Part shown: piece by piece, positions 15,224 to 24,067 of the stretch | Layout of the letters: every line of letters begins with the position of its first letter | Numbering within the stretch: position 1 is the first letter of the stretch | Origin: Conexivisphaerales archaeon | Lineage (GTDB): Archaea > Thermoproteota > Nitrososphaeria > Conexivisphaerales > DTJL01 | Direction: 5' to 3' | Assembly: GCA_049509455.1 (NCBI GenBank) | Contig: JBEKZX010000020.1 | Location: 1 to 24,067 of the forward strand | DNA: 24,067 bases | Notes under the pieces: model-generated | Seen by the model: the letters and a program-made list of their open reading frames with translations, nothing else | What the model was told of the DNA's origin: nothing | The model's database searches: none | Made by a program: the position numbers and the translations under genes

Positions 15224-16420
15224 ATGTCAAGGAAGCTAATCCCATCTAGTTCCGGGGCCCTCGACGTGCTCGTAGTCGTCTTGGTCGTCGTCGCCGTCAG
15301 CTTCGTCGTGTATTCGGCCTCTGGGATGTTCATCGGCGTACTGGTGGCCGCGCTGTTCGGGCTAGCGACCTGGGCCCTCATGGTGTCCTCCAAGCCCTAC
15401 AGGCTGAGGAGCATCTTCGTGTTCGGCCTCACCGTGGCCATGTGGACGGCCTTCTTGGCTTTCATCGCCCAGCTGGGCCCCACCTACCTGATTAAATGGC
15501 TAAGCACACATCAGAGGGTCCCGCTGACGCCGAACCCCGTATCGGAAACAGGCTTCGTGTCGATTCTCTGCCCGTATCTGCTGCCGACTGCCATTGGTAA
15601 GTCCATTCACGTGACCATGCCCGTCTACATCACCTTCCTAACCACGTTCCCGCCCAACATCGGCCTGTTTTCCCTGATATTCCTCGCATATGCCGGCACC
15701 GCCTTCATTCTAGGGAAGGGATGGTGTGGCTGGCTTTGCCCATTCGGAGGGCTGGGAGAGGTGGTCCGCCAGCGGCACAGGCCTCTCAAAGCTTACAAGA
15801 AGTCGGTAAACTGGATTATGAAGTCTTCATGGGGGAAGGGCTTCGATGTCGAGGGCCGCGAGCCAGGCCAGATGCTCCGCGACGTGAAATATGCCTTCCT
15901 GGTCGTCACCGTCCTGCTGGCCCTCTTCTATTCGGTGCAGTGGTTCTGCGTGTTCTGCTGGGCCGGGATCTTGGGGTGGTTCAGGTCGTCTCTCAACATA
16001 GGCATCTTCGTGGGGATACTGGCTGTCCTGTTCCTCGGCCTCCCTCTCCTCAGCACCAAGAAGTGGTGCCATTCCATCTGCCCCGTGGGCGCCGGGCTGA
16101 GCCTGATGGACAGGGCTACGCCCTTCAGGATAACTATTGACGATGAAAAGTGCAACGAATGCTATGCCTGCCTCAACGTCTGCCCGACATTCGGGTTCGC
16201 GCGCCGCGCGAACGGCGGGGTGAGCGTCACCGACACCTGCGACAAATGCCTCGTCTGCGTCTATAAGTGCCCGACCAAAGCCATAGACCTACGTCTTTAC
16301 AACATCAAGACTGACGCCAAGAAGTTCCTCTTCCCGGCCGCGGTGGTGCTGGGCGCCTTCTGGTTCTACTGGTTCATCGTGGTGGCCTACAACCTGGTCG
16401 CGTTGGGGGCGCTTTTCTGA
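15224..16420 (+). CDS. NapH/MauN/RdxA-like polytopic membrane 4Fe-4S protein
   Basis: WCGWLCPFG and WCHSICPVG CxxxCP motifs, CVFC, and two CxxCxxCxxxCP ferredoxin motifs, with many TM helices. Confidence 0.88.
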   Translation: MSRKLIPSSSGALDVLVVVLVVVAVSFVVYSASGMFIGVLVAALFGLATWALMVSSKPYRLRSIFVFGLTVAMWTAFLAFIAQLGPTYLIKWLSTHQRVPLTPNPVSETGFVSILCPYLLPTAIGKSIHVTMPVYITFLTTFPPNIGLFSLIFLAYAGTAFILGKGWCGWLCPFGGLGEVVRQRHRPLKAYKKSVNWIMKSSWGKGFDVEGREPGQMLRDVKYAFLVVTVLLALFYSVQWFCVFCWAGILGWFRSSLNIGIFVGILAVLFLGLPLLSTKKWCHSICPVGAGLSLMDRATPFRITIDDEKCNECYACLNVCPTFGFARRANGGVSVTDTCDKCLVCVYKCPTKAIDLRLYNIKTDAKKFLFPAAVVLGAFWFYWFIVVAYNLVALGALF

Positions 16421-17112
16421 TGGGGCTGGATACTCTTGCCGCCGCGCTCCTCCTTGGTCTGAGCAGCGGAGTCCAGTGCACCGTGACATGCCTACCGCTC
16501 CTTCTCACTCAGCTCACGGCTGCAAAGAGGACCGTCAGGGACAACCTGCGGATCTCCCTTCTGTTTTCGCTGGGCAGACTGATGGTGTACTTTGCCATGG
16601 CCTACCTTCTGTACATCTCGTTCAGGGCGTTCAGTGGGACCCTCGGAAACCCGCTGTCGGAATCCCTTACGTCTGTCCTGATGGGCACGATCCTTATTTA
16701 CTATTGCGTCAAGGCGATCAGGAAGAAGGCCGCCACGAACTGCGGCGTTCGGACTCAGGGCAAACTCGCACACCTGCCGTTCACGAACTTCGCATTCAGG
16801 GCGAATCCCGGGAGGAACTCGACCTCGCTCTTGCTGGGAATAGTTTCAAGCATGAGCGTCTGCCTCCCTCTCGTGGCGCTCATCTCCCTCTCGGCAAACG
16901 CTGATCTGGCCACAGCCTTCTCGTCGGTCTCGCTGTTCTGGATCGGTTCTTCCGTCTACTCTGTGGGACTCGCCCTGACGCTGGCAGGGGTCTCGCGGAT
17001 AAGGATAGGAGCGTCCCTAAGCAGAAGGGTGGGCTTCATCGGAAGCCTCTCCGGCGTCATGCTTGGAGCGATCATGCTCTTGGCAGGTCTGAGCGCGCTG
17101 ACAATTCTTTAG
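16420..17112 (+). CDS. DsbD_2 / UreH-like (TauE/SafE-annotated) membrane protein
   Basis: GLSSGVQCTVTCLP CxxxC motif, SLGRL and about 6 hydrophobic helices. Start overlaps the upstream stop (TGATG). Confidence 0.75.
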   Translation: MGLDTLAAALLLGLSSGVQCTVTCLPLLLTQLTAAKRTVRDNLRISLLFSLGRLMVYFAMAYLLYISFRAFSGTLGNPLSESLTSVLMGTILIYYCVKAIRKKAATNCGVRTQGKLAHLPFTNFAFRANPGRNSTSLLLGIVSSMSVCLPLVALISLSANADLATAFSSVSLFWIGSSVYSVGLALTLAGVSRIRIGASLSRRVGFIGSLSGVMLGAIMLLAGLSALTIL

Positions 17113-17561
17113 AACAGCCGGGAGAAGACGTTGACATAATTCACCATGACGATCTGGAAGAAGAGGATCCCAACGTAGAAGCCGACGATGTAGATTATGG
17201 CGGCCCCGTTTCCCGTCGTGGCGTTCACATGCTGCCTCAGAGGGCATCCTTCCGCCAAGACTGAGAAGAAAGCGTAACCCAGCCCGCCGATCACCGCGAG
17301 GGTCAGGGTCGCGAGGGACCCCGCCCCCGGCTCGTTGTGCAACATCAGGGGAAAGTCGGCCATATAGGGCGAGAACCTGAAGAAGAGGAGGTAGCCTACC
17401 AGTGCTCCCAGGGCCATGCCGACGATGGTCCTCATGAAGAGCGTGTCCCTGAATAGGTAGAAGTCCCGGTAGCCCGAGATGGAGCAGGACTTCGACCGCT
17501 GCCAGAGGTAGCCTATCACGAAGCCGGCGGCGAGAGTGGCGAGGCCGATTTCAATAGTCAC
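17109..17561 (-). CDS. YeeE/YedE thiosulfate/sulfur-compound transporter, C-terminal half
   Basis: QRSKSC..G.RD and LAEGCPLRQH motifs. GTG 17561 overlaps the upstream stop (GTGA). Confidence 0.85.
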   Translation of the reverse strand: MTIEIGLATLAAGFVIGYLWQRSKSCSISGYRDFYLFRDTLFMRTIVGMALGALVGYLLFFRFSPYMADFPLMLHNEPGAGSLATLTLAVIGGLGYAFFSVLAEGCPLRQHVNATTGNGAAIIYIVGFYVGILFFQIVMVNYVNVFSRLF

Positions 17562-18025
17562 CGGCGGACCCTCCATTTGATGTAGTTAGACGACAGCACG
17601 ACGCCGGAGAGCATGCCGGCCAGCCCCACCAACGCGACGAAGCTCCCGTACGTCAAGGCCATTATGATATGCACCGAGCAGTAGCCGAGCGTCAGCCCGA
17701 ACATTGCTACAAAGAACCCATTGATGAAATGGTCGAGGGGATGCCTGGGCATCCTGAAGTTGAACTCCTTGTTGCGCAAGGTCGACAGCGAAGCCCCCAG
17801 CACGACGCCCACCACCGTCAGTATGGGGATGTCCAACGACGGGTCGTGGACGTAGAGCGTCGTCCCGACCAGATGGTTCACAATCCAGTCAATGAGATCA
17901 CTGGGGTGGCTGATAAAACAGATGCCGAACGCCGACGGTGGGGCGATGAAAAACACGGCTTGGGCCACGGCGGCCCATAGGCCTGTAACGAAACCTGCGA
18001 GGAGCTTATCTACTTTCATACGCAT
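17558..18025 (-). CDS. YeeE/YedE transporter, N-terminal half
   Basis: PPSAFGICFISHP, LTVVGVVLGA, EFNFR and LGYCS motifs; hydrophobic. Confidence 0.8.
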   Translation of the reverse strand: MRMKVDKLLAGFVTGLWAAVAQAVFFIAPPSAFGICFISHPSDLIDWIVNHLVGTTLYVHDPSLDIPILTVVGVVLGASLSTLRNKEFNFRMPRHPLDHFINGFFVAMFGLTLGYCSVHIIMALTYGSFVALVGLAGMLSGVVLSSNYIKWRVRR

Positions 18026-18030
18026 CCAAC

Positions 18031-18903
18031 CTATGACGTGTCGGCCACCTTTCTGACGGCCTCCCCGATGTGCTTCACGATCTCAAAGACCTGAGTGGCC
18101 GGCGTGGGGTTTGACATCTGCCCCGCCAGGCGATTGGCCCTGCCAGCTATGACGCAGGCGCGAATCGGCTCATACCCTCCTGAGATGAGAGCAGAGACCA
18201 TCCCGGTGATCGTGTCCCCGGTCCCACCGATGGGCTCCAGGGCAGGGATGTTGGGCTCAGAGATGGTGTACATAATCTTGCCGTCGTCGACGATGAAGTC
18301 CGTGGGCCCCTTGATGAGGAGATATCTAGGGGCATTGCCGGCGGCGTAGGCCTTCTCTATGAGCTTGGGCACTTCTGTCGTGTCGATTTCGAAGAGCATA
18401 GACTTTACGTAGGCCGGGTGGCCAGCTTGCGGATCGGCTAGGAAGCATATTTCGCCGGCGTCGGGCGTGAAGAGGTCGAACTTCCTGCATGCACCTGTGG
18501 CCTTCGCTATGAGCATCGAGCCGGCGTCGGCTATCATGAAGGGCCTCTTCTTCCAGTAGTCTAGCATTTCAGTGAACTCCATGAAGGGCTTCCTGATCGG
18601 AAGTATGTAATGCATGGTCACGGCGGTGGCGCCCAGCGCCCCGGCCTGCTCAGTGAGATATGCGTAGAGGGCGGCCGAACCGGCGCCCTGTCCCATATCA
18701 CCGGCCACCACCCCCATGGGTGCCTCTATGCCCAAAGCCTCGGCTGCCGTGGCGGAGGCGGCCATCATGGCCATTGCGCCTATGGAGCCCAGCTCCTTGG
18801 GGATGTATTTGTCTCCCAACGAGATGGACTTGCCGTCGTATTTTATCGTGCCGAAGATGAGGGAACTGTCCTCGACGGGGAGCGTCCCTGAAAGGAGGAG
18901 CAC
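18031..18903 (-). CDS. Ribokinase-fold (PfkB/YjeF_C-like) protein of the DUF3343-associated family
   Basis: IADAG, DLFTPDAGE, LLIKG and PIGGTGDTITG anion-hole motif. GTG start directly after the DUF3343 stop. Confidence 0.8.
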   Translation of the reverse strand: MLLLSGTLPVEDSSLIFGTIKYDGKSISLGDKYIPKELGSIGAMAMMAASATAAEALGIEAPMGVVAGDMGQGAGSAALYAYLTEQAGALGATAVTMHYILPIRKPFMEFTEMLDYWKKRPFMIADAGSMLIAKATGACRKFDLFTPDAGEICFLADPQAGHPAYVKSMLFEIDTTEVPKLIEKAYAAGNAPRYLLIKGPTDFIVDDGKIMYTISEPNIPALEPIGGTGDTITGMVSALISGGYEPIRACVIAGRANRLAGQMSNPTPATQVFEIVKHIGEAVRKVADTS

Positions 18904-19449
18904 CTATTTCATCTTCCTCCAGGCTTGCAGGGCGGCTTCGTACGCCTTCTGAAGAGTGTAGGCGCAGAGCGTGAAGCCCAGCTCATTGGGGGAAACGGCC
19001 TTGTCCAGCGGCTGGCCTATCATCCGCAGGGCAAGGAGGGGTATGTCCGGGCAGCCCCCTCCGGAGATGTTGACGATGACGCCCGAAGCCTTCTCGAAGG
19101 TAAGCTTCATGTTGCCGATGCGTATCATCAGGTATGGCCCGAAGTCGACCTTCTTAACGAGCTTGCTGACCTGCAGCGGAGGGAGGTCGCCTTCGGAGGC
19201 GAACACGACATCAAGTATGGGAATGCCGTCCGCGAGCAGCACCTTCTCAGCGGAATTGACCTGGTTGCTGGGGACGGACATGGCTATGTCGCATCCCGTC
19301 CGAACCTCTGGAGGGGGGGCGCCGGCTTTGGTGTCAAACCCGGCCCGCTTGAGGACGTGCTCGGCCCTCATGGCGTCCCTAAAGAGCTCGAAGAGGAAGA
19401 GAGACCTAGAAAGGCCGTATTGGTCGGTCCGCTTATGCGGGGAGGACAA
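18904..19449 (-). CDS. DUF3343 family protein with three conserved Cys
   Basis: APPPEVRTGCD, NISGGGCPDIP and GFTLCAYTL motifs; TTG start. Confidence 0.78.
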   Translation of the reverse strand: MSSPHKRTDQYGLSRSLFLFELFRDAMRAEHVLKRAGFDTKAGAPPPEVRTGCDIAMSVPSNQVNSAEKVLLADGIPILDVVFASEGDLPPLQVSKLVKKVDFGPYLMIRIGNMKLTFEKASGVIVNISGGGCPDIPLLALRMIGQPLDKAVSPNELGFTLCAYTLQKAYEAALQAWRKMK

Positions 19450-19546: not shown

Positions 19547-20038
19547 CTAGCAGGGGTCCGATCCGACTTTGGCCGCTTCGGGGTCCAGCCCCCTCAATGT
19601 CTCGGCCAGCCCCACGACGGCTGCCACCACGCTGGGCGTCGGCCTCCCCCTCATCTTCCTAACCTGAACGCCCAGGAGCATGACCCTGACGCCTTTCAGC
19701 TCCGACTCGATGACATGGGCGAGCACAGCCAGAGGGAACTTGTGCACCAAGAAGAACTTGACCTCCTGCGTAAGGAGGTCCTCGAGGACGACGGAGCCCG
19801 GATCCAGACCCCTGTCGACGGCGTTCACCATCAGGATGACCTCGGGCCTAGCCTCGAGCACCTCGGGAAGGAACTTCTCAGGGGCCGTTTCACAGAGGAG
19901 GATCTTCATGTTCGATACATTCCTGTGAAGCTTTTTAAAAAGAAGGGGGCCGGCGATGTCGTCACCCCAGTCGCTGCCCACACACATCACTATGGTCCGC
20001 CGGCCCTTGATGAGGCGGCGAATCTCTGCTGGATCCAT
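19547..20038 (-). CDS. Hydrogenase maturation endopeptidase (HycI-like)
   Basis: VGSDWGDDIAG, ETAPE, VNAVD, GS(V) and HKFPL motifs; last gene of the hydrogenase operon. Confidence 0.88.
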   Translation of the reverse strand: MDPAEIRRLIKGRRTIVMCVGSDWGDDIAGPLLFKKLHRNVSNMKILLCETAPEKFLPEVLEARPEVILMVNAVDRGLDPGSVVLEDLLTQEVKFFLVHKFPLAVLAHVIESELKGVRVMLLGVQVRKMRGRPTPSVVAAVVGLAETLRGLDPEAAKVGSDPC

Positions 20039-20051
20039 CGGAGAGCTACGG

Positions 20052-20918
20052 TCAGGCAGTCTGAGTGCTCGGGGCTATTTGCTTTGCGTCCTCCAGCATC
20101 GCTCTGTACATGGCCATGTAGTTGAAGGAGAATGGGCAGACCCCGGCGCATAGGTTGCATTCTGTGCAGGTCGCCATCTGTTCGGAAACGTACCTGATCT
20201 CGGGTTCCGTCAGCTTCCTCGTCCTGCGAATCTGGTAATACTTCCTCAGCTTCAGAACGGGGGCCTCCATCGGGTCCTTGTTGAACGCTTCGTAGGCGGG
20301 GCAGACCTCCACGCACCTTCCGCACTTTCCGCACGCAGAGGCGAAGGCCAGCATTCCAGTTCGCGAGTCCGGCTTGGTGAACCTCCAGTACAACGTGGCG
20401 ACGCCGTGTCTCACGGCCCCTCCTGCAAAGAAGGAGACCACGAGCCACACGTAGATCAGCATAAGGTGGAGTGTGCCAAGGTACGCGTAGCCTTGACCCG
20501 TGAAGCTGGAGATGGTTACGAACCCGAAGACCTCTAGTGCCTGCACAATGCCCACTACGGCTATCGGAAACAGGAACACAAGGTCCACGAAGAAGACCTT
20601 GCCATAGGCCAGCCTGAATGCCGGGTTCCGGGCATAGCGCCACAGGAGCCCTATCCCTCCCGCCAGGATCAGCAGGCCGGTGATGCCATGAATCCATGAA
20701 ATCACCCATCCGTATCCTCCGAACACCTCCGCCGTGCCGGCGACGAGGAACGGAACCTCCATGCACAAGCCGGTGATGATGTTGCCCCAGAGGCCCAGGT
20801 GAAACGCAAAATCGCTCAGCCCGACCTTGAGACTTCTCGAGAAGAGCAGATCCAGAAGTCCCGGCTTCTTAGCATGAAGTGAAGATAGCTTGTATCTTTC
20901 AGCCTTGCTCTTTGCCAT
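20052..20918 (-). CDS. NarI/HdrE-like di-heme cytochrome b fused to an HdrC-like 2x[4Fe-4S] domain
   Basis: Four intramembrane His (AFHL, WIHG, TLHL, VRHG), then CGKCGRCVEVCP and CTECNLCAGVCP. Confidence 0.82.
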   Translation of the reverse strand: MAKSKAERYKLSSLHAKKPGLLDLLFSRSLKVGLSDFAFHLGLWGNIITGLCMEVPFLVAGTAEVFGGYGWVISWIHGITGLLILAGGIGLLWRYARNPAFRLAYGKVFFVDLVFLFPIAVVGIVQALEVFGFVTISSFTGQGYAYLGTLHLMLIYVWLVVSFFAGGAVRHGVATLYWRFTKPDSRTGMLAFASACGKCGRCVEVCPAYEAFNKDPMEAPVLKLRKYYQIRRTRKLTEPEIRYVSEQMATCTECNLCAGVCPFSFNYMAMYRAMLEDAKQIAPSTQTA

Positions 20919-20919
20919 C

Positions 20920-21855
20920 TTAGTTCACCTTTTTCTCCTCTTTCTTGGCGACCAACGGCTTCTCTTCCCCCTTGTTGTCACGCCACCTCAGCGCGAAGAA
21001 GGCCACTCCGGCAAGCAGGGGAATCCAGGCGAGCCGTATCCAGTGCTCGGCCGTCGAGTAAAGCTTGTTCTGGTTGGGGTATGCGGACTTGATGACCGTG
21101 ACCTCGGGTGAAGTGGAGAATGCCTTGAACTCGGCGGCGGTGACTACGTAGAAGGTGGAGGTATCGTTCTGATAGAGGAGCGTCGCGTCAGTGCCAGTGG
21201 TTTGGTTCAGCGTCTGGACGACCTTCTGACCCAGCGTGACCATGTCCGAGTACGAGCCCCAATTCTTCGAGACCATCTTGGGGAAGGCGGTCGCGAGCGC
21301 AGGCGACATCTGCCCGGGGCATACCTGGACGCAGAAGGGCGCGGTGTCGCTGGTCTCCGTGAACTTGGCGCAATGGTCGCACTTCAAAATCTTCCTATTT
21401 GCGTTGTCTGTCGTTATCGACCCGAAGGGGCATACTGTGGTGCACAAATAGCAACCGATGCACATGTCGGCATCGTAGGTGACGGTGCCTGTAGCCTGCT
21501 GCGTCAAGGCGTGCGTCTGGCAGACTGTGGCGCACGGGGCGTTGATGCAGTGGAGGCAGTTCTGAGCTATGGGCATTGTCCCGTAGGGGGGTTGAGTAAC
21601 TACCTTGGTGTAGGCGTTGGCCGTCGGCCATGTTGTTCCGGTGTGCAGGCTGAGGTTCGGCGCGCTCAAGCCGCTGTGATACTGCTCGTCGGCGAAAACG
21701 CAATGGTCGCAGCCGATGCAGTTCGGCACAACGATGAGCATGGCGTTCTTGGGTGTGCTGGCCTGTAGCAGCTTGGGTGCCGTCGCGGCCGTGACTACCA
21801 GAAGGCTGCCACCAGCGGCGACCGTCTTCAGGAAACTCCTTCTGTCCATGTTCAT
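20920..21855 (-). CDS. Tat-exported HybA/FdnH/DmsB-like four-cluster ferredoxin with C-terminal membrane anchor
   Basis: DRRSFLK twin-arginine signal, four Cys motifs, C-terminal WIRLAWIPLLAGVAFFALRW helix; GGAGGT RBS. Confidence 0.9.
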   Translation of the reverse strand: MNMDRRSFLKTVAAGGSLLVVTAATAPKLLQASTPKNAMLIVVPNCIGCDHCVFADEQYHSGLSAPNLSLHTGTTWPTANAYTKVVTQPPYGTMPIAQNCLHCINAPCATVCQTHALTQQATGTVTYDADMCIGCYLCTTVCPFGSITTDNANRKILKCDHCAKFTETSDTAPFCVQVCPGQMSPALATAFPKMVSKNWGSYSDMVTLGQKVVQTLNQTTGTDATLLYQNDTSTFYVVTAAEFKAFSTSPEVTVIKSAYPNQNKLYSTAEHWIRLAWIPLLAGVAFFALRWRDNKGEEKPLVAKKEEKKVN

Positions 21856-21858
21856 CTT

Positions 21859-23271
21859 CTAATTACCTCCTATCACTCTTTTCACTTTGCCATCCGCGCC
21901 CAACAGCTCGACCTTCAGCGCCCTTTCGAGGTGCGTGGCGCAAGAGATGCATGGGTCGTAGGCCCTTATGACCAAGCCCACTTCATGCCACAGGTTGTCT
22001 TCGTTGACCTTGCCTGGGCTGACGTTCCTGTTTGCCGCGCTCCAGAGCGATGCTTCGAAGCCGTTAGCGTTGATTACCGTGGGAGTTATGATGTTGGCCT
22101 TGGTGATGTAACCTTCGTCGTTCCACTTGTAGTGGTGGATGACCGTGCCCCTTGCGGCTTCACAGGAGCCGGCCCCTTCACCCGCCTTCATCTTGAAGGG
22201 TGTCTTGAGCTCTCCCTGCGTAATCGAGGAGTCCGAAAGCAGCTGCTCCAGCCTCTCCGCGGCGAAGACGAGACAGACGTACCTGGCGAGGTCGTACTGC
22301 AGCGTGCCGTGCACCGGGGAGCCATATTTCCCTTTCAGTTCCTTCAAGAGCTTGTCGGCCACTTCGGTACCGGTCTTCTTGGAGATGTTGACACGCGCTA
22401 GGGGTCCCGTGCGAACGAAGGACTTGTCCTTGGGCTGTCCTTTCACCGTAACGCTCTTTCCGAAGGAGTAGGGCAGGGGCTCCTCTGATATCTGGTTCAT
22501 GTAGTCGCCTACCTTGAATTCGGAGATCTTGGCGCCCGTCTTGTCAATGATGGAGATGTCTCCCCTGTAAAAGCTCATGGTCCCGGAGTCGCTCATGCCG
22601 AGGTAGCTCGACTCGACCTTGCCCAGCTCAATGTTGTCGTCTACGAACTTTTCGTAGATAGGGGCGATGACCGCGTCGTACCAGCCGATGACGTTCTTCT
22701 TCGCCTCGAGGAGGTAGCCGAGAAGCTTCTTTCTGGTGTCCTCGTCGAATCCCCTGTTAATCCCGCCTGGGACTGCGGTCATGGGGTGGACGGCCTGGAC
22801 GCCGATGGTCTCTATGATCTTCTGTCCCACGGCCCGTGTGTAAACGACCTGCTTGACCACCTCAGGGAACTTCCTGTAAACTCCTATGATATCGCGCTGC
22901 TTGAATGGAAGCTCCGGAAGGAGGAAGTCGGGTCCAGCGAGGATGAAGGTATGAAGAGTGTGGTCCCCCAAGATCTCGCCCATCAGCATCAGCTCCCTGA
23001 GCTTCTCTGCCCGCTCGGGTAGCTCGAGGCCCAGCCCGTCGTCGATGGCCTTCGCACTGGCCAAGTGGTGGGGAATCGGGCAGACCCCACAAATCCTGGT
23101 TACGATTATGGGGGCCCTGTGCACCAGCCTGCCTTCCAAGAACTTCTCAAAGCCCCTGAACTCGGCAAAGTCTGCGAGCGTCTTCGTTACCTTCCCCTTC
23201 TGATCTAGCTGCACCCTTACGTTGAGGTGCCCTTCTATTCGTGTGACCGGATCGATTTCAATTTGACTCAT
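21859..23271 (-). CDS. [NiFe]-hydrogenase large subunit, group 3 (HoxH/MvhA-like)
   Basis: IDPVTRIEGH, RGFE, L1 RICGVCPIPH, EAARG and L2 YDPCISCATH followed by a cleavable C-terminal tail; GGGTGA RBS. Confidence 0.97.
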   Translation of the reverse strand: MSQIEIDPVTRIEGHLNVRVQLDQKGKVTKTLADFAEFRGFEKFLEGRLVHRAPIIVTRICGVCPIPHHLASAKAIDDGLGLELPERAEKLRELMLMGEILGDHTLHTFILAGPDFLLPELPFKQRDIIGVYRKFPEVVKQVVYTRAVGQKIIETIGVQAVHPMTAVPGGINRGFDEDTRKKLLGYLLEAKKNVIGWYDAVIAPIYEKFVDDNIELGKVESSYLGMSDSGTMSFYRGDISIIDKTGAKISEFKVGDYMNQISEEPLPYSFGKSVTVKGQPKDKSFVRTGPLARVNISKKTGTEVADKLLKELKGKYGSPVHGTLQYDLARYVCLVFAAERLEQLLSDSSITQGELKTPFKMKAGEGAGSCEAARGTVIHHYKWNDEGYITKANIITPTVINANGFEASLWSAANRNVSPGKVNEDNLWHEVGLVIRAYDPCISCATHLERALKVELLGADGKVKRVIGGN

Positions 23272-23278
23272 TTCTTGT

Positions 23279-23758
23279 TCACCCTAAGATATCGCTCAAC
23301 AGTTCCCTGATCACCGGACCCGGTGGGGGGCAACCCGGTATCACGTAGTCGACCTTGACGTACTTGGAGAGTGGCTCCACCTTGTCAAGAAGCTCGGGAA
23401 TGCCGTCGGTGGGCGTCCTGTCGCCATATGCCCTGGCCAGCAACTCCTCGGGCGTGAAGAGGTTCCCCAAGCCGGGCATTGCGCCGGTGCTTGGGCAACT
23501 GCCGAACGAGACGAGGATCTTCGACTTCTTCCTAGCAGCCTCAACCCTTTCGAGGTCATGCTTAGTCCTTACCACGCCTATCACGAATGTAACGTCGGCT
23601 TGGTCGAAATCAGTGGTACTGGCCAACACGGGTGCATAGACGAGATCGACGCTCTTGTCCAACAACTTTAGCAGGCCGATGCCAAGATCAGCCAAAGCGA
23701 TTTCACATCCGCCGCAGATGGCGCAATCTTCGATCGCGAGTTTTGCTTTAGCCGCCAT
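23279..23758 (-). CDS. [NiFe]-hydrogenase small subunit, short HoxY-type (proximal cluster only)
   Basis: CAICGGCE, FGSCP and IPGCPP motifs. 159 aa, with no Tat signal and no medial/distal cluster domain. Confidence 0.93.
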   Translation of the reverse strand: MAAKAKLAIEDCAICGGCEIALADLGIGLLKLLDKSVDLVYAPVLASTTDFDQADVTFVIGVVRTKHDLERVEAARKKSKILVSFGSCPSTGAMPGLGNLFTPEELLARAYGDRTPTDGIPELLDKVEPLSKYVKVDYVIPGCPPPGPVIRELLSDILG

Positions 23759-23845
23759 AACCTTTGACTTCCTTTGTGAATCGTCGTTGCTCTAATAAGT
23801 CTAACCTACTGGTAATATTTACAGACTTTGCGAGCAAGGAGACAA

Positions 23846-23884
23846 TGATAGAGTAATTATAGAATATCGATAACGATTTTATAG
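23846..23884. repeat. Four phased hexamers at 11-bp spacing upstream of the hydrogenase operon
   Basis: TGATAG 23846, TTATAG 23857, CGATAA 23868 and TTATAG 23879. Confidence 0.6.
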
Positions 23885-23963
23885 GCAGCATGATGACATC
23901 AAGAGCGCGTTCAGTTAGGCTCGTCCAAACGCTTAAAGCCGATGGAGAAGCTTTGTCAGATTG

Positions 23964-24067
23964 ATGCCCTCCGTAAGGTCCGTCCTTCTTTCGATGGCCG
24001 GAGTGGCCTTGGCGCTCGTTCTTGCCCGGTACACGGCCAAGTACCAGTACGGCATCTTGTGGGGGCT
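23964..24067 (+). CDS. Membrane or secreted protein, 3' partial
   Basis: MPSVRSVLLSMAGVALALVLARYTAKYQYGILWG is open to the window edge. TTAAAG at 23933-23938 gives leaderless spacing to TTG 23961/ATG 23964. Confidence 0.6.
   Translation, partial: MPSVRSVLLSMAGVALALVLARYTAKYQYGILWG

Follow-up and report, generated by a model that had tools for sequence, protein, structure and literature searches.

A group 3c-like [NiFe] hydrogenase operon with a Tat-signal ferredoxin and an iron–sulfur membrane subunit in a Conexivisphaerales archaeon

Group 3c [NiFe] hydrogenases of the MvhAGD/VhuAGD type (5odc) are cytoplasmic enzymes that carry the L1 and L2 motifs and have a maturation protease. They are the closest described relatives of both subunits of the hydrogenase considered here (325 bits for MvhA, 109 for MvhG), which is encoded by an operon on a contig from a Conexivisphaerales archaeon (JBEKZX010000020.1, assembly GCA_049509455.1); the window, below, is the whole of this stretch, 24,067 nucleotides long. 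The window enzyme departs from the Mvh/Vhu pattern: its small subunit has no domain to hold medial and distal clusters, MvhD and HdrABC are missing, its large subunit falls in a separate clade, and its partners are membrane proteins. Short small subunits, of 179–189 residues, also occur in group 3d HoxHY (5xf9_C) and in NiFe-HydABCSL (7t2r_E), but these are more distant (71 and 62 bits), and the window operon contains no HoxEFU or HydABC diaphorase module. HoxY of group 3d holds a proximal cluster only and passes electrons directly to another Fe–S subunit.

The other two redox proteins of the operon have their parallels among membrane-bound systems. In EtfD (9ojn) and the HdrED/DsrMK/HmeCD/EMO family, a His-ligated haem b bundle is fused to a cytoplasmic 2×[4Fe–4S] domain; the membrane subunit of the window resembles them, its haem being predicted, but it has no CCG domain, has four helices rather than five, has a hydrogenase as its partner in place of an ETF or a thiol substrate, and goes together with a ferredoxin that is exported. 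HybA of Escherichia coli hydrogenase 2 and FdnH/FdnI (1kqf) offer a (co-)exported four-cluster ferredoxin with a C-terminal anchor, seated on a four-helix cytochrome b. There, however, the catalytic subunit is exported, carrying or riding a twin-arginine translocation (Tat) signal, and the cytochrome ends at a quinone site, not at an Fe–S domain. In DsrMKJOP and HmcABCDEF, the transmembrane redox complexes of sulfate reducers, a b-type cytochrome is combined with a ferredoxin on the outside (DsrO, HmcB) and an HdrD-like Fe–S protein in the cytoplasm, and one relative of the window module (locus L068, below) keeps an HdrB-like subunit. Unlike them, the window operon has no cytochrome c, NrfD-type subunit or CCG catalytic domain, and the hydrogenase appears to take the cytoplasmic position.

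On balance it is probable that the operon encodes a cytoplasmic hydrogenase wired through a haem and Fe–S membrane protein to an exported ferredoxin. The enzyme would be membrane-associated and cytoplasm-facing, derived from the Mvh/Vhu (group 3c) lineage, with its large subunit and one-cluster small subunit both retained in the cytoplasm. The exposed proximal [4Fe–4S] cluster would exchange electrons, in either direction, with the 2×[4Fe–4S] domain that ends the membrane subunit. Transfer across the membrane would fall to the four-helix bundle and the one or two b haems that it probably holds, and the Tat-exported, tail-anchored ferredoxin would exchange the electrons on the outer face with an extracytoplasmic partner or substrate for which the operon has no gene.

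The catalytic dimer, its partners and their linkage

The large subunit has both motifs (Table 1) and a 23-residue C-terminal tail after L2. Its best NCBIfam match is VhuA (322.7 bits, cut-off 800), ahead of ShyA (212.6) and FrhA (175.4), all under the equivalog cut-offs. Among solved chains, MvhA (5odc_F) is followed by the large subunit of NiFe-HydABCSL (311 bits), by further archaeal hydrogenase chains (9sfi_g, 304; 9sw2_F, 297) and by the NAD-reducing enzyme 5xf9 (264); solved group 1 enzymes align by their N-termini only, and group 1 family models match the N-terminal 115–170 residues only, at 92–162 bits. These comparisons support a group 3c-like large subunit of the Mvh/Vhu lineage. A first-pass annotation made from the DNA letters had proposed a soluble core of group 3c/3d type, which is upheld as 3c-like, and the five open reading frames and all the motifs that it quoted are present.

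The motifs and the closeness to MvhA and VhuA place the large subunit with group 3c, but the three-cluster small subunit of about 290–310 residues, the association with MvhD and HdrABC, and branching within canonical Mvh are all lacking. Group 3d is marked by the HoxEFU diaphorase module, and group 1 (Hyb-like) by a Tat signal on a three-cluster small subunit together with a group 1 large subunit; neither is found. Pfam and NCBIfam scans of the operon revealed no gene for MvhD, Hdr, a flavoprotein or NuoE/F/G-like (HoxEFU) proteins, in agreement with the earlier remark that the usual partners are absent. The layout lies outside the standard hydrogenase classes.

The small subunit covers only positions 1–160 of the 286 in the VhuG model. 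It aligns with the first 150–165 residues of Mvh/Vhu G chains of 288–308 residues and ends 14 residues past GCPP. In an alignment with the solved F420-non-reducing small subunit 9sfi_I, Cys15, Cys18, Cys88 and Cys143 fall on the residues that bind its proximal cluster. To judge from these alignments, the protein keeps the proximal [4Fe–4S] cluster only, the domain for the medial and distal clusters having gone. It has neither an RR motif nor a signal peptide, and translation may in fact begin as many as 9 codons downstream. The first-pass annotation had called it short, HoxY-like and devoid of a Tat signal; it is indeed short and signal-less, but it is closer to Mvh/Vhu G (109–121 bits) than to HoxY.

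In a tree of 72 large subunits, 44 form a clade with FastTree support of 100, and the clade takes in all 12 sequences with known linkage to the partner genes. IQ-TREE gives the same split an SH-aLRT of 100 on a 42-row subset. The references in the tree were Mvh-type sequences and the genome's own HdrA-linked sequences, with HydDB subgroup naming outside the comparison; relative to these, the 44 are a distinct clade, set apart from canonical Mvh of the Methanocella/Methanobacterium type and from the genome's own HdrA-linked enzyme.

The ferredoxin begins with a Tat motif, RRSFLK, followed by a hydrophobic stretch, and its C-terminal hydrophobic helix is followed by a Lys/Glu tail. It has four Cys groups and weak matches to the HybA (best, 76.8 bits), HmcB and DsrO models, features that would place it in the four-cluster family of HybA, FdnH and DmsB. 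All six aligned homologues retain the RR motif, the anchor and 15 Cys residues, and the genome encodes TatC. The protein is predicted to be exported to the outer face and anchored there by its C terminus. In the first cluster motif, CxxCxxCxxxD, Asp56 replaces the fourth Cys (the 16th overall), which is Cys in five homologues; this cluster may be Asp-ligated or of the [3Fe–4S] type.

The membrane subunit has a basic N terminus, four predicted helices and then two CxxCxxCxxxCP motifs, both invariant. Given four helices and a basic N terminus, both ends of the protein, the Fe–S domain included, should be cytoplasmic. No Pfam cytochrome b family matches it, nor does PF02754 (CCG), and the protein stops at residue 288. 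The predicted structure (mean predicted local distance difference test, pLDDT, 76) was aligned by VIA-align with EtfD of Mycobacterium smegmatis at Z 14.3 over 256 residues, a span that takes in the bundle and the Fe–S domain, and with NarI (Z 10.6), the cytochrome b of hydrogenase 1 (Z 9.3) and FdnI (Z 7.2); Foldseek found nothing in the PDB at E <= 0.001. Of the candidate haem ligands, His40 and His77 never change, His151 has a conservation of 90% or more, and position 171 is variable. On the strength of the modelled fold and the conserved His residues, one b haem is likely and a second plausible. Of the hallmarks of the EtfD/HdrED/DsrMK family, the NarI-like bundle and the 2×[4Fe–4S] domain are recognisable from fold and Cys motifs, and the CCG domains are absent. 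The first-pass annotation had described a Tat-signal, membrane-anchored HybA/FdnH-like ferredoxin, a description that stands, and a NarI/HdrE-like cytochrome b with an HdrC-like domain; here the Cys motifs bear out the Fe–S half, and the cytochrome half draws on the fold matches and the His residues, with no Pfam match behind it.

The membrane-subunit family is small: 5.8 billion proteins yielded 52 clusters, and 1.84 billion yielded 13 representatives at E <= 1e-30. Relatives of 580–670 residues that bear CCG domains come within the range of profile searches, and P0186 and P0201 are relatives with such domains. Among 401 genomes of the phylum, the profile found one other full-length homologue (in genome G396), the remaining matches being to the Fe–S domain only.

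Six further loci, on archaeal and apparently bacterial contigs, keep the four redox genes together, and do so in three gene orders. The order small–large–ferredoxin–membrane subunit, with the protease gene after that of the membrane subunit, recurs in L016, L017, L019 and L021; in L023 the large- and small-subunit genes are divergent from the ferredoxin–membrane pair; and L024, on a GC-rich contig that looks bacterial, has the order ferredoxin–membrane–small–large. In all six the small subunit is short and without a signal, and the ferredoxin has its own Tat leader. Wherever a full-length member of the membrane-subunit family can be read as DNA, the ferredoxin gene adjoins it and hydrogenase genes lie beside the pair, the exception being the more distant L068. 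Linkage persists down to 37% identity of the membrane subunit, and further pairs of large-subunit and membrane-subunit matches are tied together by equal longest-contig sizes. The link between the pair and the hydrogenase, on whose survival among homologues the first-pass annotation had staked its interpretation, holds across these loci.

Could the hydrogenase pair and the ferredoxin–membrane pair nevertheless be neighbours by chance? The latter module does occur without a hydrogenase, at L068, and physical contact between the two pairs is without direct evidence. Against this stand the linkage itself, the short intergenic gaps in the window (7, 3, 1 and 13 nt), and a small subunit with a proximal cluster only, which needs an Fe–S partner and finds no other candidate in the operon. 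Chance adjacency is highly improbable, and was rejected on the grounds of a linkage conserved over three gene orders.

One of the six loci is itself damaged. In a metagenome-assembled genome (MAG) of the same genus (L017, 5660–9359 on contig C3 of G004), three genes, those for the large subunit, the membrane subunit and the protease, are each split over two or three frames; the cause is either indel errors in the long reads or an operon in decay. A pseudogene reading was rejected, the frameshifts being confined to this one long-read MAG.

Sidedness of the hydrogenase

The ferredoxin and the Fe–S domain are placed on opposite faces by their own signals and topology. For the dimer, the alternative to a cytoplasmic position is an outward-facing uptake hydrogenase: the signal-less subunits would be exported on the Tat signal of the ferredoxin, and electrons would run inward through the haems to the Fe–S domain and a cytoplasmic acceptor, as in a Hyb/Isp-type group 1 loop. 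Such an arrangement would be energetically favourable, as an energy-conserving loop; HybA is the best, if weak, match of the ferredoxin; and DUF3343 and neighbouring sulfur-carrier genes could supply the cytoplasmic acceptor.

Composition argues otherwise. The median fraction of charged residues (D+E+K+R) in this genome is 0.124 for secreted proteins and 0.252 for proteins without hydrophobic segments, taken as cytoplasmic; for S+T+N+Q the values are 0.285 and 0.167. The small (0.245) and large (0.255) hydrogenase subunits are charged to the same degree as the genome's own 3b-like and HdrA-linked hydrogenases, and only one of the 51 secreted training proteins reaches 0.245. The ectodomain of the ferredoxin, by contrast, is charge-poor (0.114) and rich in polar residues (0.302). 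A logistic 20-letter classifier (cross-validated area under the receiver operating characteristic curve 0.974) gives each hydrogenase subunit a probability of 0.000 of being extracellular-like; the cytoplasmic parts of the membrane subunit receive 0.003, and the ectodomain of the ferredoxin 0.992. Across hosts, the charged fraction of the ectodomain ranges from 0.113 to 0.255, whereas the hydrogenase subunits stay within 0.22–0.26. A charge shift in the one and none in the others indicates that the two do not share an environment. Charged fractions and classifier agree with the first-pass annotation, which had favoured a cytoplasmic hydrogenase from composition, and natural fusions, below, add independent support.

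Hitchhiking, the export of a signal-less protein on the signal of a partner, seems to occur both in this genome and in the wider family. In two CoxSLM-type molybdenum hydroxylase operons (L032, G000 contig C49, 19156–23109; L034, C98, 3274–7354), the Tat signal is on the CoxS-like [2Fe–2S] subunit only, and the signal-less large and medium subunits are as poor in charge as secreted proteins, so that the whole enzyme is probably exported by hitchhiking. The FdnH-like ferredoxin of L068, which has no signal, probably hitchhikes as well. These cases favour an exported dimer in principle, but the signal-less CoxL/CoxM-like partners, which serve as an in-genome control, have charged fractions of 0.12–0.15; presumed hitchhikers are charge-poor like the window ferredoxin, and the hydrogenase subunits are not.

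In one subclade the small subunit forms the C-terminal domain of longer proteins (P0348, P0469 and P0349, whose JGI and ENA contigs measure 38582, 21305 and 9960 bases). P0348 and its twin P0469 begin with a hydrophobic leader and a beta-rich, Ser/Thr/Asn-rich domain of about 250 residues; next comes a hydrophobic helix with a run of basic residues after it (RARKRK or QRKR), and last a complete small subunit; P0349 starts later, without the leader. The ectodomain of P0348 has five N-x-S/T sequons. No Pfam family matches the ectodomain, of which two examples are 35.6% identical (E 1e-54), a conservation indicating that the extension is coding. By the positive-inside rule, this type-I layout would place the fused small subunit behind helix and basic stretch, on the cytoplasmic face, the opposite of what an exported dimer requires. 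In the window a 5'-open frame upstream of the small-subunit gene was considered as a possible counterpart and rejected: it looks non-coding and is not homologous to the fusion ectodomain. In the same-genus locus L013, no long minus-strand open reading frame lies directly upstream of the small-subunit gene.

Relatives of the membrane subunit bear other modules. The hydrogenase-free locus L068 (G396 contig C13, 6373–13721) encodes the signal-less FdnH-like ferredoxin, a membrane-subunit homologue and an HdrB-like CCG protein; it continues with a Tat-signal FMN_bind protein and ApbE, and with a divergent Tat-signal ferredoxin and aldehyde:ferredoxin oxidoreductase (AOR). In L024 (4276–6983) the hydrogenase module has the same pair, a Tat-signal ferredoxin and AOR, upstream of it. 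In P0184 (820 residues), the transmembrane domain typical of the membrane subunits is joined to a GltD/NfnB-like NAD(P)H flavoprotein with extra 4Fe–4S domains, a composition that may make it an NAD(P)H-linked version of the conduit. Since the HdrB-like and GltD-like modules of these relatives are cytoplasmic and at the same end, they too support a cytoplasmic hydrogenase, and speak against an outward-facing one, which we judge improbable. From composition, the exchangeable partner modules of the relatives and the type-I-anchored fusions, we infer that the dimer docks on the cytoplasmic Fe–S domain.

Several points weigh against the wired cytoplasmic hydrogenase. To our knowledge, every characterised ferredoxin of the HybA/FdnH type serves a catalytic partner on the outer face, in the case of HybA a hydrogenase, and no outside catalytic partner is encoded in the window operon. 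Oxidation of H2 inside with outward electron flow would spend proton-motive force. Haem binding is deduced from fold and His conservation only, and His171 is Gln in some homologues. The fusions are known from protein records, and the AlphaFold model of the fused small subunit is weak (pLDDT 55). Finally, the classifier assigns the presumed CoxL/CoxM hitchhikers only 0.01–0.50; because it is undecided on them, the composition control is clean on charged fraction only.

Electron flow and genomic setting

A cytoplasm-facing dimer need not use the ferredoxin as its main outlet. The enzyme could be an H2:quinone (or phenazine) oxidoreductase, with the ferredoxin as a side branch or structural anchor. 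EtfD forms a wire from a cytoplasmic donor through Fe–S clusters and haem b to menaquinone (PMC13083937), so that the best fold match of the membrane subunit reduces a membrane quinone, and three Tat-Rieske proteins in the genome imply a quinol-oxidising chain. A full-length membrane-subunit homologue, whether or not it adjoins a hydrogenase, occurs in Ca. Methanohalarchaeum thermophilum (OKY78013.1), and the respiratory chain described for H2 uptake in Methanonatronarchaeia comprises a membrane [NiFe] hydrogenase, cytochrome b, a methanophenazine-like carrier and HdrDE (PMC7374477, PMC9796771). Yet the ferredoxin gene lies beside the membrane-subunit gene at every locus seen, and its product keeps the Tat signal wherever hydrogenase genes are present, which is hard to explain for a side branch; MqnA/D were not found in the genome, and a MenA-like gene only below threshold. 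We regard this variant as rather unlikely. That EtfD, the closest solved fold, wires a cytoplasmic donor also counts for a cytoplasmic hydrogenase wired to the exported ferredoxin.

As to direction, uptake of H2 feeding the outward wire or a membrane quinone comes close to an even chance. The reverse flow, in which low-potential extracytoplasmic dehydrogenases send electrons inward so that H2 is made and proton-motive force built, seems less likely, though well within reach. The AOR and Tat-bearing ferredoxin beside the module in L024 and L068 hint at exported low-potential dehydrogenases outside and at inward flow; no AOR gene was found in the window genome, so AOR is not the outside partner here. 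It is conceivable that the wire serves H2-driven extracellular electron transfer without multihaem cytochromes, or a redox loop that evolves cytoplasmic H2 and builds proton-motive force.

Table 1. Features of the operon and its surroundings in the window
Feature	Positions	Strand	Family match
[NiFe] hydrogenase small subunit, 159 aa	23279..23758	-	Oxidored_q6 3.6e-24
[NiFe] hydrogenase large subunit, 470 aa, group 3c-like	21859..23271	-	Pfam NiFeSe_Hases 6.4e-35
L1 motif RICGVCPIPH, large-subunit residues 59-68	23068-23097	-	
L2 motif DPCISCATH, large-subunit residues 439-447	21931-21957	-	
Four-cluster ferredoxin, HybA/FdnH type, predicted Tat-exported, 311 aa	20920..21855	-	Fer4_11 2.2e-13
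Tat motif RRSFLK, ferredoxin residues 5-10	21826-21843	-	
First cluster motif CxxCxxCxxxD, ferredoxin residues 46-56	21688-21720	-	
C-terminal hydrophobic helix (anchor), ferredoxin residues 277-291	20983-21027	-	
Membrane/Fe-S subunit, four-helix bundle and 2x[4Fe-4S] HdrC-like domain, 288 aa	20052..20918	-	Fer4_8, Fer4_17
First CxxCxxCxxxCP motif, membrane subunit	20298-20333	-	
Second CxxCxxCxxxCP motif, membrane subunit	20133-20168	-	
Hydrogenase maturation endopeptidase, HycI/FrhD type, 163 aa	19547..20038	-	TIGR00142 hycI 2e-15
Whole operon, five open reading frames	19547-23758	-	
Downstream neighbours: DUF3343 (Se/S-carrier-like) and carbohydrate-kinase-fold gene	18031..19449	-	Pfam Se_S_carrier, Carb_kinase
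DUF3343, carbohydrate-kinase-fold protein and YedE/YeeE transporter split across two genes	17109-19449		
NapH-like membrane polyferredoxin and DsbD_2-family membrane protein	15224-17112		Fer4_5; DsbD_2
5'-open frame upstream of the small subunit, rejected as coding	23748-24065	-	

The window is an entire 24-kb contig (C54) of an archaeal MAG of 2.05 Mb, 95.5% complete. The contig carries the archaeal housekeeping genes for aIF2, S6e, eIF2-gamma, an Rpo7-like protein and S24e, and the nearest database proteins, among the matches listed, are labelled Conexivisphaerales or Nitrososphaerota. The genome has two other hydrogenase loci: an ordinary HdrC/HdrA-linked enzyme is encoded on contig C63, and C1 carries four genes whose sizes suggest an enzyme like those of group 3b (sulfhydrogenase). 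With these already present, the window operon encodes an extra, distinct enzyme.

The protease scores 47.4 bits against TIGR00072, whose cut-off is 47.45. Past it, the DUF3343 and kinase-fold genes also adjoin the operon in L016, L017, L019, L021 (two copies) and L025 and are absent in L023 and L024; it is uncertain whether they belong to the hydrogenase system, and the split YedE/YeeE transporter gene lies beyond them. The genes for the NapH-like polyferredoxin and the DsbD_2-family protein, farther on, are translationally coupled, and it is possible that they form another electron-export pair.

Implications for hydrogenase classification

The catalytic core and the fold of each partner have been seen before; not so their combination, the clade of the large subunits or the sidedness inferred here. 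In the literature searched, no group 3-type dimer is described that has a Tat-signal ferredoxin and a haem/Fe–S fusion subunit for partners, and the word hydrogenase does not occur in the AMET1 proteome paper. The first-pass annotation had recognised no defined subgroup with this gene set; none has come to light in that literature, and the large subunits form a clade of their own. We tentatively propose, at somewhat under even confidence, that the clade is an unnamed group 3 subgroup serving as the cytoplasmic end of an Fe–S and haem transmembrane wire, through which the turnover of H2 in the cytoplasm would be tied to redox reactions on the outside.

Hydrogenase surveys file such enzymes as group 3c, for which soluble, Hdr-linked electron bifurcation is predicted (e.g. 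PMC11094006). If the enzyme is instead wired to the membrane and the exterior, reconstructions based on a 3c assignment would be wrong on this point for Conexivisphaerales-like archaea, other Nitrososphaerota and some bacteria. The homologue in enrichment-cultured Ca. Methanohalarchaeum, and a related hydrogenase cluster reported for the pure-culture sister genus Methanonatronarchaeum, could permit testing at the bench. On the wired reading, the ferredoxin and membrane subunit would form an all-purpose adaptor whose cytoplasmic head can be exchanged, whether hydrogenase, HdrB-like or GltD-like. Such a modular transmembrane conduit of Fe–S clusters and b haems would provide a new route between H2 chemistry in the cytoplasm and the cell's exterior.

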